A stretch of 40,597 nt of DNA from an uncultured Candidatus Bathyarchaeia archaeon. Lineage in GTDB: Archaea > Thermoproteota > Bathyarchaeia > TCS64. Shown here piece by piece: positions 17,329 to 40,597 of this stretch. The notes under the pieces were generated by a model that saw nothing but the letters and a program-made list of their open reading frames with translations, searched no databases and was not told where the DNA came from. The position numbers and the translations under genes were made by a program. The stretch's first letter is position 1. Every line of letters starts with the position of its first letter. The stretch covers positions 1 to 40,597 of the forward strand of contig CAZLHA010000002.1 in NCBI GenBank assembly GCA_964559155.1, read 5' to 3'.

Positions 17329-17874
17329 ATGGTTTATACTGTATTACTACAACCCCTAAATATGAGACCTGAGGACTTTTTCAAGTTTAATCCTGAAACC
17401 GGGGAATGGAACAACATAAACGTGGATTACCGTTTCGTGCTAATAGGTGAAACAATTATCCACAGTATAGTGGAAAACCTAACTGAACACTTCGGCAGCG
17501 CAACAGGTGTATTCATGTACCAGAGTGGCTTGGGTGTGGGGATTAGTTACGGAAACCTTCTGAAAGAATCCCCAGACAAGTTAGTGGGTTTGAAGAATAT
17601 CTTTGAGAACATGTACATGGCTGGATGGGGGCGGATGACTATCGAGGACTCAGACATAGATTCCCTAGAACTGGATGAAATAACTATACTCGAGGAAAAT
17701 GGGTTCTTCACAAAAATGGGGTTGGAGGAAGAGATGGAGAACCTGAATCCATTCACAAAAGGATTTCTAACAGGTATCTTTGATACTGTTAACGGAGAGG
17801 AACACACCTGTGAGATGGAGGTCGTTAGCGAAAAGCCATTGAAATGTCGTTACACTATCACGACTATTCGTTAG
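17329..17874 (+). CDS. V4R-domain-like (4-vinyl reductase / hydrocarbon-binding) protein
   Basis: 181 aa. MYQSGLGVGISYG...MAGWGRMTIED...ENGFF...KGFLTGIFDTV...C resembles the V4R pattern. Weak, by eye only. Confidence 0.4.
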   Translation: MVYTVLLQPLNMRPEDFFKFNPETGEWNNINVDYRFVLIGETIIHSIVENLTEHFGSATGVFMYQSGLGVGISYGNLLKESPDKLVGLKNIFENMYMAGWGRMTIEDSDIDSLELDEITILEENGFFTKMGLEEEMENLNPFTKGFLTGIFDTVNGEEHTCEMEVVSEKPLKCRYTITTIR

Positions 17875-18469
17875 AGTTTTTTTCCTGCTCTCTTTTACCG
17901 TAGCTAACCACGAGGTCCACTAGTTTCTTGGAGTCTATCTCGGCTCTGCTACGCCAGTCAAGGTACAGCATTCCCTGATCATCCTCACCAAGATAACCCT
18001 GATTGATGTAACGATCAATATTGAGTTTCACCCTCCACCCGGGAAGCTTCTCCTCCAAGACCCTCTCCACGTCCTGTCTGGTGGATTTTCCCTGCTTGGA
18101 GATAATATAGGCAACGGATACAGCTAACCCGGCGATATCATCTATACGCCACCCAATGGTCTTGGCTGTCTTCTGGTCCACGGTGCCCCTCATGGTGATA
18201 TAATATCTGGCGTCCTGAAGCTGAGAACTGGTGGGGTCAAGGATATCCGGGTCATCAAGTACTCTGGTAACCTGAAGGTCAAATGGTTGTAGTTGTTTAT
18301 CCAGTACCTCAAGGATGTTCTGCCAGTCGGATCCTAGTTCTTTACGTAGCTCCCAGCCTCTAACCCCGGGTAATTTATGATGCGTGAAGAATAGTAGATG
18401 TACTGCGTCCTTGAGTTTACGTTGATAATGCTGCTCTGCCTTGCTTACTCGTTTCGCCAAAGTTTCCAC
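17864..18469 (-). CDS. tandem winged-helix KITE-type protein (ScpB / Nse3-MAGE-like), third gene of the SMC-like operon
   Basis: 201 aa with two WH-like modules, at about residues 22-72 and 110-188. Module 1 reads AVHLLFFTHHKLPGVRGWELRKELGSDWQNILEVLDKQLQPFDLQVTRVLDDP. Module 2 reads GLAVSVAYIISKQGKSTRQDVERVL...YINQGYLGEDDQGMLYLDWRSRAEIDSKKLVDLV. The start overlaps the upstream gene by 25 nt. Confidence 0.55.
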   Translation of the reverse strand: METLAKRVSKAEQHYQRKLKDAVHLLFFTHHKLPGVRGWELRKELGSDWQNILEVLDKQLQPFDLQVTRVLDDPDILDPTSSQLQDARYYITMRGTVDQKTAKTIGWRIDDIAGLAVSVAYIISKQGKSTRQDVERVLEEKLPGWRVKLNIDRYINQGYLGEDDQGMLYLDWRSRAEIDSKKLVDLVVSYGKREQEKNSNE

Positions 18470-19218
18470 TCCTCATAATCTACTAGCACTGGTAGGCTTA
18501 CTTTTCCCTGCTCAGGATCGGGTATGGGCTCCTCTTTATGGATAATAGTGTATTCATCCATTAACTTGTCCCATTCGACGCCCGCGTACCCGTAACCCAC
18601 CATGAATACGGTTAGATAAGCCCGGTTAACAGTATCCTCGTAGGTATCTGCACCGATCCAGTCCCAGTAATCGATACTCCCCCCGGGTCCCACTTTTTCC
18701 TCAAGCTCCTGCCAGAGTTTCTCTATCACCTCAGTGAATCCTTCCTCCGGCAGTAACCCCATACGCCGCACCTCGTCACGGGTGGTTCTACCTGTCTCTC
18801 TCTCCTCTACCTCCTCGTCCTGCCATCTCTCATCGATGGGAACAAGGTCCCCCCAGTACCCGAGGCTAGCCCCCAGGGTGCCTGCGCTCATCTGCTCTAA
18901 CTCCACCAACGGGTGCCATGTTCTGAGAAATAGATCCGCGATAGCCCCTATGTCCAACGCTAATAGGCTCTGACTCAGCATGAATGGATCCTTGTACAGT
19001 GTCGTAGACTTATGCTCTATCCACTGATTCTGGCGCTCAAGCACGTTACTGAGCTCCCTCAACGCCTCAGCGTCCAAACAGAAATCCTTAGGGTTCTTAA
19101 TGTTAGGGTAATGTTTCTTGATGACGCTCATCACGTAGTCGAAGTCGATGTCAAATGGCTCTATCTTGCCGCTCTGAACCATCTTGCATAGGTTTATGAC
19201 GCTCTCAAGCTCGCTCAT
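18445..19218 (-). CDS. ScpA-like kleisin, second gene of the SMC-like operon
   Basis: 257 aa. The N-terminus LCKMVQSGKIEPFDIDFDYVMSVIKKHY...LDAEALRELSNVLERQ parallels the ScpA N-terminal helical domain. A charged central linker (DERWQDEEVEERETGRTTRDEVRR) is followed by a C-terminal WH-like segment (YEDTVNRAYLTVFMVGYGYAGVEWD). The ATG lies 1 nt after the SMC-like stop (TAAgATG). Confidence 0.6.
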   Translation of the reverse strand: MSELESVINLCKMVQSGKIEPFDIDFDYVMSVIKKHYPNIKNPKDFCLDAEALRELSNVLERQNQWIEHKSTTLYKDPFMLSQSLLALDIGAIADLFLRTWHPLVELEQMSAGTLGASLGYWGDLVPIDERWQDEEVEERETGRTTRDEVRRMGLLPEEGFTEVIEKLWQELEEKVGPGGSIDYWDWIGADTYEDTVNRAYLTVFMVGYGYAGVEWDKLMDEYTIIHKEEPIPDPEQGKVSLPVLVDYEEWKLWRNE

Positions 19219-19219
19219 C

Positions 19220-21274
19220 TTATTCCTCCACTACTGTGGGCTCTGAGACCGTCTCTGTTTTATGAACCATGATGATGTGCACATCTTTCTCCTTGAAGGT
19301 AATCTGGCTAGGGGTAATAGCCATGTACTGGTCATCGGTGCCTTCCGTGGTCTGCACGATGAAGTCGCTTACAGCCTCCTTGTTCTGGGGATCCATGTGG
19401 AGGTCGAACTCGTCCACAGCCCTGAAGGGACTCAATACGTTCTGCTGTAGTGAGAGCAGGAACGCCATAACGCTGCTGCTCCGTTCTCCACCACTATGCG
19501 TGTATGGGTCGAGTCGGCTGGGTGGAGCGCCTTTGAACCCTACGAATATCTCTAATCCTGCTTCTTCGATGTCGTGGCTGTCGATTAACCTGACTTCTCC
19601 GTTTGCTTGAAGTCTCTTGAGTAACTTCTTGTATCGTATATTCACGTCGTCGAGGAGTTTCTCTGTTACTTGTCTCCATTTCTTGTTTCGTTCCTCGATC
19701 TCCTTGAGTATTTTACGGCGGTTCTCTTTTACTTCCTGGATCCGCTGCTGTATCTCTTTGAATGTCTCGTTGTAGCTCTCGTACATCTCCTCAGCTTCAT
19801 CAGGTATATTGGACATCCCCATGAGGATTCCCTGAGTCTTTCTTATCTCGTTAAGAATCTCTTCCCCGGTTCTCCCTGTCTCGATCCGCTGCCCTTTGAT
19901 TAACGCCTCTGCCTCAGCGTCTTTCAGGTCACGGTTAGCCCTATCCATCTCCGCTTTCAGCGACTCTACTCTGCGGTTCAGGCGTTGGCGCCGGTCCTTG
20001 AGTAACGCTAGGTTTATTCTGCTGTCGATGTATTGATCATTTGCTTTATCGATTCTTCCACGCAGCTGATTTATCTCAGTTACTAGTTTCTGGGCTTCTT
20101 CCTCTGCTGTGGTTAACCGCCGGGTATACGTCTCTAACTGGGTCTGGATTGTGTTCCTCTGGGCGTTAAACTGATTGCTCAGGCTCTCATATGTCTCTAC
20201 CTGTGTCTCCTCTAGCTCCTCGAAGAGCTTGAAGTAGTCATCCAGCTTGGTGGGGCCCATCTCTAGCTGGTTTAAAAGGTTCTTGTAGCTGGTTTCGAAG
20301 CGTCTTCTCTGTTGATTGCTCTCCAGTATATTGTCTTCCAGCTGATTGAGCCTGTCTTTAGCTGTGTTGATGCTGTGTTCGCTTACCCCAACGATTCTCT
20401 CTGATTCGATACGTTTCTCGATAAGGTCTTCCCGCTGGGTTCTTAGATTCTGGAGCATTTGCTCGCTGTCCACTATTAGCTTGGTGTTCTGCTCCATCTC
20501 CTCCTCGGCTTCAAACAGCTCCTTTTCTGTATCCTTTAACTGTTCTTGGAGTTTCTCCACCTGCTCCTCCATGGACATAACCCTGCTCCACGCCATCTCC
20601 TGCTGGAGAAAAGTCTGTCTCTTTTCTAACTGCTTTTTCTCCTGAAGGCGCTCATTCTGTTCACGCCAATAATTTAGTGTCTCCCTTGCCTGATTCAGCA
20701 AATTACCAAGGCTCTCCTCCTCGCTCAGCACCCCACTGAGTTTTTTCTTCGCCTCTATCACGTCCTCTCGGAAGGTATCGAAGCCGACTGCTTCCTCCAA
20801 TATCTGGAGTCTCTCCTTGGGGTTTATGTTAGCGAACTTGCTGGGCATAGCTTGATGCATGATTATCAGCATATTAGTGGGGTCGAAGCCATAGGTTCTC
20901 AGAAGCCCCATTACCTCCGCTTTGGTCACGTTTCTCTGGTTAACCCTAAAACCATATTTTCCATCTACCCTCAGGGTTCTTGTGAGTGTAATCTCATCCA
21001 TATTATACTGGGGGACTGGTCTGTAACCGTTCTCTCCAACCGTGTTATCCAGTATCAGTGTGACTCTGGCTGTCTCGCTCCCCCATCTGATGAGGTCGCT
21101 GAGTTTCTTTGATCGTTCTGTATAAGTGTCTCCGAGGGCGACGCATATCCCCAGTAGTAGACTGCTTTTCCCGGATCCGTTGGGGCCGCAGACTACGTTT
21201 ACCCCTTCTTTCAGGGGTACTCTGGCGTACTCGTATGACATAAAGTTCTCTAGTATTACCTCACGGATGAGCAT
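19220..21274 (-). CDS. short hingeless SMC-like ABC ATPase with SMC5/6-type head motifs
   Basis: 684 aa. Walker A GPNGSGKS (30-37), Q-loop MHQ (139-141), signature SGGERS (594-599), Walker B AVDEFD (619-624) followed by LHMDPQN. Residues ~170-545 are heptad-rich coiled coil, broken at MGPTK (339-343). There is no globular hinge and no CxxC hook. Confidence 0.85.
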   Translation of the reverse strand: MLIREVILENFMSYEYARVPLKEGVNVVCGPNGSGKSSLLLGICVALGDTYTERSKKLSDLIRWGSETARVTLILDNTVGENGYRPVPQYNMDEITLTRTLRVDGKYGFRVNQRNVTKAEVMGLLRTYGFDPTNMLIIMHQAMPSKFANINPKERLQILEEAVGFDTFREDVIEAKKKLSGVLSEEESLGNLLNQARETLNYWREQNERLQEKKQLEKRQTFLQQEMAWSRVMSMEEQVEKLQEQLKDTEKELFEAEEEMEQNTKLIVDSEQMLQNLRTQREDLIEKRIESERIVGVSEHSINTAKDRLNQLEDNILESNQQRRRFETSYKNLLNQLEMGPTKLDDYFKLFEELEETQVETYESLSNQFNAQRNTIQTQLETYTRRLTTAEEEAQKLVTEINQLRGRIDKANDQYIDSRINLALLKDRRQRLNRRVESLKAEMDRANRDLKDAEAEALIKGQRIETGRTGEEILNEIRKTQGILMGMSNIPDEAEEMYESYNETFKEIQQRIQEVKENRRKILKEIEERNKKWRQVTEKLLDDVNIRYKKLLKRLQANGEVRLIDSHDIEEAGLEIFVGFKGAPPSRLDPYTHSGGERSSSVMAFLLSLQQNVLSPFRAVDEFDLHMDPQNKEAVSDFIVQTTEGTDDQYMAITPSQITFKEKDVHIIMVHKTETVSEPTVVEE

Positions 21275-32045: not shown

Positions 32046-32483
32046 ATGCCTAAACTCGACCTAGATAAACTCGATAAACGTAGCTATAACCTTGGTATGA
32101 TCTACGCTTTCTCTGAGGTGGTGGGAAGCGGTGTTAAACGTCTGGGGCTTAGTCCTCCCCTCTCCACGGAAGAATATAATGCGATAATAGATGATGTAAG
32201 GCTCGTCGCAGAGGAATACGGAGTCACCTTACATACAGATAACGATTTCTTAGAGACATTACTCTTCAACCCGGACTTTACCAGAAACAAGATAGTTATC
32301 CATCTAGCAGACTCCAAGGAGACACTGAAGGAGTACCTACAGTTAAAAGAACAGAAAAAAACACTGATAGAGCACGACGAACTAACGAAGGAGAAGGAAG
32401 AAGAGATCGCCAGATCCTTAGGATCTTTACTCAGCTATAGCAAAGAAACCGTAGATGATCTATTGACTAATCCCAGATTCTGA
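32046..32483 (+). CDS. hypothetical 145-aa protein
   Basis: Clean ORF with a charged helical C-terminal half. No family recognised. Confidence 0.4.
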   Translation: MPKLDLDKLDKRSYNLGMIYAFSEVVGSGVKRLGLSPPLSTEEYNAIIDDVRLVAEEYGVTLHTDNDFLETLLFNPDFTRNKIVIHLADSKETLKEYLQLKEQKKTLIEHDELTKEKEEEIARSLGSLLSYSKETVDDLLTNPRF

Positions 32484-38959: not shown

Positions 38960-39838
38960 ATGGAGCCATTATCAGGTATTATCACAGCCCTCATAACGCC
39001 TTTCACAGTGGAAGGTGAGTTGAAGAAAGAAGCAGTAAAGCCTCTCATAGATTTTCAGGTGAAGGGAGGTGTGGATGGGTTATTTCTTTGCGGTACAGCT
39101 GGACTGGGCACAGTAATGCGTACAGATCAGAGAATAGAGATGTATCAACTATCAGCCAAGGCAGCCCGTGGCCGGGTGAGACTACTGGCCCACGTTGGAG
39201 CATCCAGCACAGGGGAAGCCGTACGTCTCGCAGTGGAAGCCGAGAAAGCCGGTGTGGACGCGGTTGGAGCTGTTCCACCTTACTTCATGAAGCCTGACGA
39301 GGAGAGCATCCTCAATCACTTCAAATCAATTGCAGACGCAACGAAGTTACCCGTCTACATATACAATATACCACGACAAGCCCTCAACGCTGTAACTCCA
39401 GAGATGATGCTGGAGTTATCCAAAGTACCTAACATCCAGGGAGTGAAAGATAGCAGCAGGGATTTTATTAATGTCTTAAACTATCTCAGGTTACTCCCAG
39501 ATACTTTTAGCGTAATCTGCGGTACAGATAGTTATATTTACCCGGCGATGGTTATGGGCGCCAAGGGAGCCATAACAGGCTACGCCAACGGGTTCCCAGA
39601 CATTTACGCGGACTTTTTGAAAACTATCAAGTCAGGTGACCAAGAGGCAGCCAAACGGAAACAATTCGAGATAAACATGCTGAGAAGCAAGCTCCAGAAG
39701 CCACCCTTGGCCCCCCACTATGAAGCATTACGTCTCAGAGGCGTTGACTGCGGGGTTCCAAAGGCACCCTTGAGAGCAATGACCGAGGATGAATCAGAAG
39801 CTTTCGTGAGGGAGATAGAGAAACTAAGCATCCTCTAG
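38960..39838 (+). CDS. DapA/NAL-family class I aldolase (candidate KD(P)G aldolase)
   Basis: 292 aa. GLFLCGTAGLG, YIYNIP and the Schiff-base lysine context GVKDSS. Pairing with the PfkB kinase suggests a KDG pathway rather than lysine biosynthesis. Confidence 0.7.
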   Translation: MEPLSGIITALITPFTVEGELKKEAVKPLIDFQVKGGVDGLFLCGTAGLGTVMRTDQRIEMYQLSAKAARGRVRLLAHVGASSTGEAVRLAVEAEKAGVDAVGAVPPYFMKPDEESILNHFKSIADATKLPVYIYNIPRQALNAVTPEMMLELSKVPNIQGVKDSSRDFINVLNYLRLLPDTFSVICGTDSYIYPAMVMGAKGAITGYANGFPDIYADFLKTIKSGDQEAAKRKQFEINMLRSKLQKPPLAPHYEALRLRGVDCGVPKAPLRAMTEDESEAFVREIEKLSIL

Positions 39839-40597
39839 GCTATCTATTTCCTCGTCAATTATTTTCTCGATGTCATCCAGCTTACCTTTTATCCATTGCT
39901 GGAGTTCCCTGATCTTCTGGACCCTTGCATTCCACTTTGGTACATCAATGTTTTCTCTTATGGCCTCCTCCACAATCTCTTGGAAAAGATTAGGATCTAA
40001 AGCATCCAGTTCCACTGATTTATTACCATATTCGGCTAGAAAGCTCTCAGAACGGGCGTCACTTCTCTTAACCGGCATGGGTGGCAGATTGTATTCTCTT
40101 ATCTGATCTAGTGTCAGGGCGATTCTCTTTACCTTGAACTGGGTTGCACCATAACGGGTGAGTCTTTCCTCCAAGTCTCTTTCAATATCCACGCCGCTGG
40201 GGTCAAAGTCACCGAAATAGAGAACTACTGTTGGTTTTCCACCGAGTCTGGTCTCCATATACTTGGCCATGGTCTGTACATAGCTAAAACTCGGATAACC
40301 TCGTGTCGGGAACGTCCTAACAGAGTACCGGTTACCAACCCTGCTTACGAGTCTGCTCAAGGCATCTTTTTCTAGGCTAATCAGGAGGTATACTGGCTGG
40401 TCCTCCCACATGGGCATGGAGAAACCTTTCCAACTATCCTGTAGGCTATTTAATCTCCTTTTCAGATAATCCTCAGCTGACTCATAACCCGTATCTCCAC
40501 GACCCAGCACACGTCGGCTACGGTCCTCGATACAGTTAAGGGTCACGTCACCCTGCTCTCTGGCTTTCACCATTATCCTGCTTAATCGCTTGTAGCT
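39824..40597 (-). CDS. Topo VI-A/Spo11-type Toprim domain protein (partial; ORF open at window end)
   Basis: The Toprim Glu context is LLISLEKDALSRL, followed by RGYPSFSYVQ and the DxD motif VVLYFGDFDPSGVDIERDL. There is no stop in the 8 codons upstream of the first Met (40573), so the N-terminus may lie off-window. Confidence 0.6.
   Translation of the reverse strand, partial: SYKRLSRIMVKAREQGDVTLNCIEDRSRRVLGRGDTGYESAEDYLKRRLNSLQDSWKGFSMPMWEDQPVYLLISLEKDALSRLVSRVGNRYSVRTFPTRGYPSFSYVQTMAKYMETRLGGKPTVVLYFGDFDPSGVDIERDLEERLTRYGATQFKVKRIALTLDQIREYNLPPMPVKRSDARSESFLAEYGNKSVELDALDPNLFQEIVEEAIRENIDVPKWNARVQKIRELQQWIKGKLDDIEKIIDEEIDSLEDA

Follow-up and report, generated by a model that had tools for sequence, protein, structure and literature searches.

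The window analysed here is an entire contig of 40,597 nucleotides (C2; CAZLHA010000002.1) from an uncultured Candidatus Bathyarchaeia archaeon (assembly GCA_964559155.1, hereafter G000; 245 contigs, 2.45 Mb, 88% complete). Its last part is occupied by a minus-strand open reading frame (ORF) at 39824..40597, which comprises 257 amino acids and a stop codon (39824-39826) and stays open to the window end. This ORF is almost certainly the larger part of a gene for a Topo mini-A (Mini-A), a stand-alone homologue of the DNA-cleaving A subunit found in type IIB topoisomerases. The peptides LLISLEKDALSRL, RGYPSFSYVQ, LYFGDFDPSGVDI and LTLDQIREYNLPPMPVKRSDARSESFLAEYGNKSVELDALDP, followed by an acidic helical tail, are all present in it. 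No internal start codon of the 257-residue part accounts for the conserved N-terminal sequence. Since the window is the whole contig, it could not be extended directly. Another contig of the assembly, C239 (locus L003), ends in the 68 nt that close the window, save for one mismatch, and supplies, in the same frame, residues 1-46, M(M)SRKRPSYDKVVAAALEVFEQYDTAITLRQLYYRLVARLLIENTIN, continuing into SYKRLSR... The added part carries the catalytic-tyrosine motif TLRQLYYRLV, and the complete protein has 303 amino acids. The features of the gene are as follows (coordinates without a prefix are those of the window).

L003:2336-2341, off-window on C239: TTTATA box of the Mini-A gene
L003:2365-2502, off-window on C239 of G000: Mini-A residues 1-46, with an extra in-frame ATG at 2362
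L003:2449-2451, off-window on C239: codon of R29
L003:2461-2463, off-window on C239: codon of catalytic Y33
39824..40597, minus strand: 3' 774 nt of the Mini-A gene (residues 47-303 and stop), from the ORF, the C2-C239 join, phrog_6247 and phage matches
40511..40597, minus strand: C-terminal part of a truncated 5Y-CAP/winged-helix domain (residues 47-75), from alignments A2 and A3 and from helices at 45-61 of the AlphaFold2 model
40091..40393, minus strand: Toprim domain (residues ~115-215), from AlphaFold2 predicted local distance difference test (pLDDT) values of 89-96, Foldseek matches to Top6A and weak DUF2399 and JetD matches
40370..40372, minus strand: codon of the Toprim glutamate E122 (ISLEKD), invariant in sets of 50 and 49 diverse homologues
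40202..40210, minus strand: codons of D176-F-D178 (DxD of GDFDPSG), the metal-binding acidic pair, visible in the sequence itself; D176, D178 and G181 are invariant
39998..40015, minus strand: VELDAL 'T2BI box' diagnostic of Mini-A ([V/W]ELDAL; motif defined in PMC7671362); E242 is invariant
39830..39943, minus strand: long C-terminal alpha-helix (residues 265-302) with an acidic end, from the AlphaFold2 secondary structure (H265-302)
39824..39838, both strands: convergent 15-nt overlap between the 3' ends of the Mini-A gene and a DHDPS-family aldolase gene, found likewise in L004, L005 and L006

L004, a contig of 72.8 kb, and a second contig of 21.6 kb each hold an uninterrupted gene for P0001, a 303-residue protein with 99% identity. 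The gene order on these contigs (NUDIX, ICMT-like, M24 peptidase, DUF3795, Mini-A, DHDPS, PfkB) is the one obtained by placing C239 before the window. The intact gene lies in the same order in L004, L005 and G006, and in the last of these, a genome of the same genus, the Mini-A is 100% identical. Because near-identical genomes hold the intact gene in the same gene order, the C2-C239 join is not an artefact. The single difference in the overlap (window position 40543, L003 position ~2557) makes residue 66 a threonine in the window and a proline in C239 and in all relatives; it is probably a strain variant behind an assembly break inside the gene. The gene is single-copy in G000, its two apparent matches being the two halves on C2 and C239. 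The protein has more than 1,350 homologues at E<=1e-3, it is matched by 7,845 representative clusters, and the ratio of nonsynonymous to synonymous substitution rates (dN/dS) in close pairs is 0.05-0.2. The ORF is therefore a real gene and not a chance frame.

Searches of Pfam and NCBIfam with the Mini-A protein returned nothing above threshold and only a weak DUF2399 match, and neither TP6A_N (PF04406) nor an ATPase domain was matched in the 303 residues. Among the PHROGs profiles, phrog_6247 'DNA topoisomerase' matched with an E-value of 1.7e-71 (residues 14-293 of 304). A tblastn search detected 78 phage records with 35-39% identity over ~88% of the length; query coverage is 80% or more in 74 of these. 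Among the 78 are Xylella phage Salvo, Pseudomonas phages NP1/PaMx25 and Flavobacterium phages, and several are annotated 'DNA topoisomerase'. Mini-A was described by Takahashi et al. (2019/2020) as an A-subunit homologue of ~300 amino acids that lacks the N-terminal half of 5Y-CAP (PMC7671362). Its defining traits are RxxY/FY, the Toprim glutamate and DxDxxG, a C-terminal xWELDAL 'T2BI' box and the lack of a B subunit (PMC7671362). It was published as exclusive to viruses and proviruses (PMC7671362). Mini-A constitutes a third type IIB topoisomerase-like subfamily.

Every molecular trait in this definition is present in the 303-residue protein: the size, RxxYY, the Toprim glutamate and DxDxxG, the T2BI box, homology to viral proteins and the lack of an adjacent B subunit. 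The T2BI box reads SVELDAL here, with V for W as in many other members. The only trait in which the protein departs from the definition is distributional, since its gene lies not in a virus or provirus but in a core chromosomal region that is syntenic across the genus. Residues R29, Y33, E122, K123, D176, D178, G181 and E242 do not vary in either of two alignments of diverse members (50 and 49 sequences), and L243, D244 and A245 of the T2BI box are invariant or nearly so. Y48, R59, D71 and R74 of the 5Y-CAP/winged-helix part are likewise invariant in two alignments. No GHKL or Top6B gene was detected in the Mini-A neighbourhoods inspected (relatives from the genus and two closed chromosomes). 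The canonical top6A and top6B genes adjoin each other elsewhere, on contig C121 (open frames of 365 and 530 amino acids, with TP6A_N and Topo-VIb_trans matches), which rules out that the Mini-A gene is the ordinary top6A of the organism.

An AlphaFold2 model built from 49 sequences has a mean pLDDT of 90.1, with the first helix starting at residue 8. A sequence search of the PDB returned no match. The only significant fold matches in the PDB (Foldseek) are Topo VI A subunits, namely 9O8P, 9O0G and 9O7O from M. mazei and 1D3Y from M. jannaschii, with E-values of ~1e-5 and a probability of 1.0. The BFVD library of viral folds gave nothing informative; a Salmonella-phage 'DNA topoisomerase 2 fragment' reached no better than E 3e-3. 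Much of the first-pass annotation, made from the window sequence, is borne out by these results. It had assigned the ORF to the Topo VI-A/Spo11-type Toprim proteins, naming Mini-A among the possible relatives, had seen no B subunit beside it and had suggested that a winged helix bearing the catalytic tyrosine may follow outside the window, where C239 indeed carries it. The peptides that it quoted, the 15-nt overlap with the aldolase gene (38960..39838, plus strand) and the distance of ~18.5 kb to an SMC-like gene are correct. Its two grounds for doubt were an ordinary Top6A beside top6B and a fold other than Toprim; the top6A-top6B pair lies on C121, and the fold is like that of Top6A.

To define the distribution of Mini-A, 301 sampled genomes of the class were surveyed, with orthologues taken at >=64% identity. 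Every genome of the genus to which the window belongs has the orthologue (31/31), as do 15/16 from eight further genera in its family and 4/6 from the sister family f4. It was found in 0/23 genomes of genera g13-g15 of the same family, and in the rest of the class only 7 genomes hold sporadic homologues with 25-49% identity. Within the genus Mini-A always lies between the same two blocks of core genes, with M24 peptidase/ICMT/NUDIX/methyltransferase/PriL/PriS/GINS/L44e/eIF2-alpha on one side and DHDPS/PfkB/archaeal flagellin-type/CxxCxxCC/Zip/M24 on the other, 3-6 kb from the primase-GINS cluster. In the closed Bathyarchaeota chromosomes CP070784 and CP070640 it is surrounded by metabolic and signalling genes, with no integrase, capsid or terminase gene within 10 kb on either side. 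No tRNA gene lies closer than 13.8 kb to Mini-A.

Four contigs filed under bacteria also carry a Mini-A of the Bathyarchaeia clade: L038 (DATKWY010000270.1, 'Desulfaltia'), L051 (QMPS01000205.1, 'Aquificota'), L066 (DATLAV010000222.1, 'Patescibacteria') and L073 (DATKWN010000016.1, 'Krumholzibacteriaceae'). L038 and L073 in addition show archaeal PriS/PriL synteny. All four are probably mis-binned archaeal contigs.

The proportion of nonsynonymous differences (pN) of Mini-A, 0.169, equals that of PriL and is lower than those of PriS, eIF2-alpha, DHDPS, PfkB and GINS in the same genome pairs; only L44e is slower. Purifying selection on Mini-A matches that on primase in strength. The inheritance of the gene is essentially vertical. 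Inspection of 27 loci by eye showed that each has a box resembling TTATA[C/T] 26-33 nt upstream of the start codon (27/27; a script pattern flagged 17). The archaeal TATA box sits ~26 nt from the transcription start, so the position of the box suggests that Mini-A has its own promoter and is expressed from a leaderless or nearly leaderless mRNA. The small DUF3795 gene that precedes Mini-A in some genomes was considered as a constant companion and rejected, as it is not kept upstream across the clade and Mini-A has a TATA box of its own. This gene encodes 60 amino acids here (L003:2112-2294) versus 96 in L004 (L004:9666-9956), and it is much more divergent than the copy in this relative, whose Mini-A is 99% identical; the sequence stays conserved in the 60 nt that directly precede Mini-A, the TATA box among them.

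An unrooted gene tree of 116 sequences was built. All 45 Bathyarchaeia sequences (45/45) form one clade with short internal branches and a Shimodaira-Hasegawa-like approximate likelihood ratio (SH-aLRT) support of 99. A viral contig with a long branch is sister to the clade (support 90), and the clade is nested in a group, supported at 99, whose other members include viral contigs and Nitrososphaerota sequences that occur in multiple copies. Identity to the nearest homologues on viral contigs is 44-49%; those at 47-49% belong to virus genomes that are densely packed, unidirectional and equipped with terminase, PolA and ribonucleotide reductase (RNR) genes. We conclude that Mini-A is very probably fixed in the host chromosome of this Bathyarchaeia lineage, in addition to canonical Topo VI.

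Some observations were made on other carriers. The nearest viral carriers, L189/L190 (the IMG/VR contigs of L107/L108), have an adenylosuccinate-synthetase-like gene beside a fusion of uracil-DNA glycosylase (UDG) with PolA and beside RNR, a gene set that recalls PurZ/DpoZ phages, whose genomes contain 2-aminoadenine. A gene for 914 amino acids in L189 has GATase and Topoisomerase IB matches. The Thaumarchaeota metagenome-assembled genome (MAG) REEA70 (Nitrososphaerota) contains at least four near-identical Mini-A genes (L076, L079, L082 and L083) on three contigs, with branches of ~0.02-0.03, which suggests a multi-copy integrated element.

Most likely, an ancestor of part of one Bathyarchaeia order captured Mini-A once, long ago, from the viral or mobile-element pool. 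The invariant tyrosine of Mini-A, the arginine three residues before it, the acidic triad of Toprim and the glutamate of the T2BI box are those used by Topo VI and Spo11. Topo VI and Spo11 act by an Mg2+-dependent transesterification that yields a 5'-phosphotyrosyl intermediate. Their active sites are composite across the dimer (PMC11922746), and dimerised mouse SPO11 needs no other protein to make double-strand breaks in vitro (PMC11922746, PMC11922745); therefore, a stand-alone A subunit can suffice catalytically. By analogy, Mini-A would act as a homodimer in which the tyrosine of one protomer and the Mg2+-binding Toprim domain of the other form two composite active sites. DNA would be cut via a 5'-phosphotyrosyl intermediate and could be resealed, with neither an ATPase gate nor ATP-driven strand passage. 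The helix at residues 265-302 is a candidate element for dimerisation or partner binding. Such B-subunit-independent breaking and rejoining might serve recombination, repair or resolution in the cell. We regard this chemistry, dimeric Mg2+- and tyrosine-dependent cutting and rejoining without an ATPase, as having a little less than an even chance of being right. The fullest form of the proposal, a domesticated viral Mini-A with an important cellular role in Spo11-like, B-independent double-strand breaking and rejoining during a housekeeping DNA transaction, is a tentative and rather unlikely one. The explanation as a whole, comprising the Mini-A identity, the host-fixed gene and the origin and chemistry proposed for it, we consider probable.

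Several observations weigh against this explanation. None of the 23 genomes from genera g13-g15, which belong to the same family, yielded the orthologue, and the g13 site, sought as an 'empty site', is rearranged, with synteny breaking directly after PriL, so gain and loss cannot be distinguished there. Outside the genus the neighbourhood is not kept; at 64-69% identity it is rearranged yet still cellular. Because the tree has no root and is only partly resolved at its deep forks, it does not decide between capture from a virus and an old cellular gene taken up by viruses. The Foldseek TM-scores are low (~0.37), because CAP is oriented relative to Toprim otherwise than in Top6A. Finally, we found no biochemistry in the literature for any Mini-A.

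The first-pass annotation had proposed that a mobile or defence element may have its border at this gene. Published Mini-A genes being viral or proviral (PMC7671362), a provirus-borne gene would fit the 44-49% identity to the nearest viral-contig homologues and a contig break that falls exactly inside the gene. This break, however, coincides with the single-base variant in the 68-nt overlap. The flanks on both sides are core cellular and syntenic across the genus, the closed chromosomes show no mobile genes within the 10 kb inspected, the nearest tRNA gene is distant, and all 31 genomes of the genus carry Mini-A, evolving at a primase-like rate; the true viral homologues, in contrast, lie in terminase-containing virus genomes. 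The border proposal is thus not upheld, and an integrated element is highly improbable. Scarcely more credit can be given to a Wadjet-like system in which Mini-A is a JetD/MksG-like defence nuclease acting with the SMC-like ATPase 18.5 kb away. The ATPase gene (19220..21274) encodes a 684-residue SMC_N protein with weak JetC and LmuB matches, and lies with two downstream ORFs (257 and 201 amino acids; no Pfam or PADLOC match) at 17864-21274 on the minus strand. Resemblance of Mini-A to JetD had also been noted in the first-pass annotation; it is limited to weak matches (E 4e-4 to 5e-3) that centre on Toprim and cover only C-terminal parts of the JetD models, and DUF2399 is matched weakly too. 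There is no match to the N-terminal portions of these models and no jetABC-like operon beside Mini-A. JetD is reported to cleave without a catalytic tyrosine, and in Mini-A this tyrosine is invariant. Co-occurrence of Mini-A with the SMC-like family, which had been suggested for checking, fails: the SMC-like gene occurs in 252/301 genomes of the class and is carried by 17/18 and 4/4 genomes in genera that have no Mini-A orthologue. It lies ~520 kb from Mini-A in the closed genome G187 and on different contigs elsewhere. It is core to the class rather than a sporadic defence system, and with neither co-occurrence nor linkage it was rejected as a partner.

A Rep-like initiator that nicks and joins single strands in a step of chromosomal replication or recombination is a less improbable alternative, if still an unlikely one. 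A nicking initiator has been hypothesised for the skuldvirus Mini-A (10.1101/2021.07.29.453957), and it would agree with the proximity of the gene to primase-GINS in the genus and with the lack of an ATPase partner. This proximity is lost in other genera, unrelated genes on the opposite strand lie in between, and the composite active sites of Top6A and SPO11 (PMC11922746) favour paired cuts. That Mini-A is an alternative A subunit pairing with the Top6B of the cell appears hardly credible: the genome does encode Top6B, and Mini-A has kept the catalytic core of an A subunit, but TP6A_N is unmatched, in agreement with the published family analysis (PMC7671362), and the gene is unlinked to top6B. 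The Bathyarchaeia gene could also be what remains of a stand-alone A subunit of ancestral cells, with viruses having acquired theirs from such cells. The unrooted tree allows this, and Takahashi et al. considered a stand-alone ancestor possible (PMC7671362). The orthologue is, however, confined to part of one order of one class, with sporadic 25-49% identical copies elsewhere in the class, and in the tree the clade falls among viral and mobile-element sequences whose branches are much longer; a cellular relic is quite unlikely. Capture from the viral pool is preferred here as the origin of the gene.

No conserved partner of Mini-A was found among the candidates tried, the SMC-like gene, the DUF3795 gene and 'hyp145'. 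The last, a gene for a protein of ~145 amino acids with no family assignment, lies at 32046-32483 on the plus strand of the window, 7.3 kb from Mini-A in this genus. In four deeper lineages (L057, L060, L062 and L066) it is convergent with Mini-A and directly downstream of it, an adjacency that looks like a trace of older synteny. It was rejected as a partner: its family has several paralogues per genome, occurs in 14/18 genomes of a genus that lacks Mini-A and is missing from some carriers.

The family was already known from viruses and mobile elements; what is new here is a Mini-A clade fixed in a cellular chromosome. No description of a host-fixed Bathyarchaeia Mini-A was found in the literature searched. 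That Mini-A is kept as tightly as primase argues that it is useful alone, without an ATPase partner. Its Bathyarchaeia orthologues provide a clean set for biochemistry and for finding partners by phylogenetic profiling, and they bear on how a cell tames a stand-alone Top6A-like cutter, the same question as for Spo11. The genes, now listed as 'hypothetical protein' in Bathyarchaeota MAGs, could be named. If a viral Mini-A has indeed been domesticated for an important cellular role, the third type IIB subfamily would thereby gain its first function in cells, and prokaryotes would offer a parallel to how Spo11 evolved from Top6A.

Comparison with known systems places the protein as follows. With JetD/MksG of Wadjet (DUF2220/DUF2399/DUF3322) it shares a Top6A-type Toprim domain and weak profile matches; it differs in lacking the JetD N-terminal domains (DUF3322/DUF2220) and a jetABC operon and in having a catalytic-tyrosine motif. 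It resembles Topo VIII, a plasmid-borne type IIB topoisomerase, in the truncated 5Y-CAP, the Toprim domain and a T2BI-type box, while the fused or adjacent Bergerat (GHKL) ATPase B moiety and the RVELNAM box of Topo VIII are both absent here. With Topo VI A/Spo11 (1D3Y, 9O8P, 9O0G) it has in common the CAP and Toprim fold, the catalytic tyrosine, the glutamate and DxD. Unlike Topo VI A, it is 60-100 residues shorter and has no N-terminal CAP segment that binds Top6B, does not match TP6A_N, is not encoded beside top6B and shows sequence identity of only 12-18%. The closest likeness is to Topo mini-A (phrog_6247; phages Salvo, NP1/PaMx25), with ~300 amino acids, a truncated 5Y-CAP, RxxYY, Toprim, [V/W]ELDAL and homology over the full length. 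Unlike the published viral members, the Bathyarchaeia clade is single-copy, syntenic, vertically inherited and chromosomal, and is under strong purifying selection.

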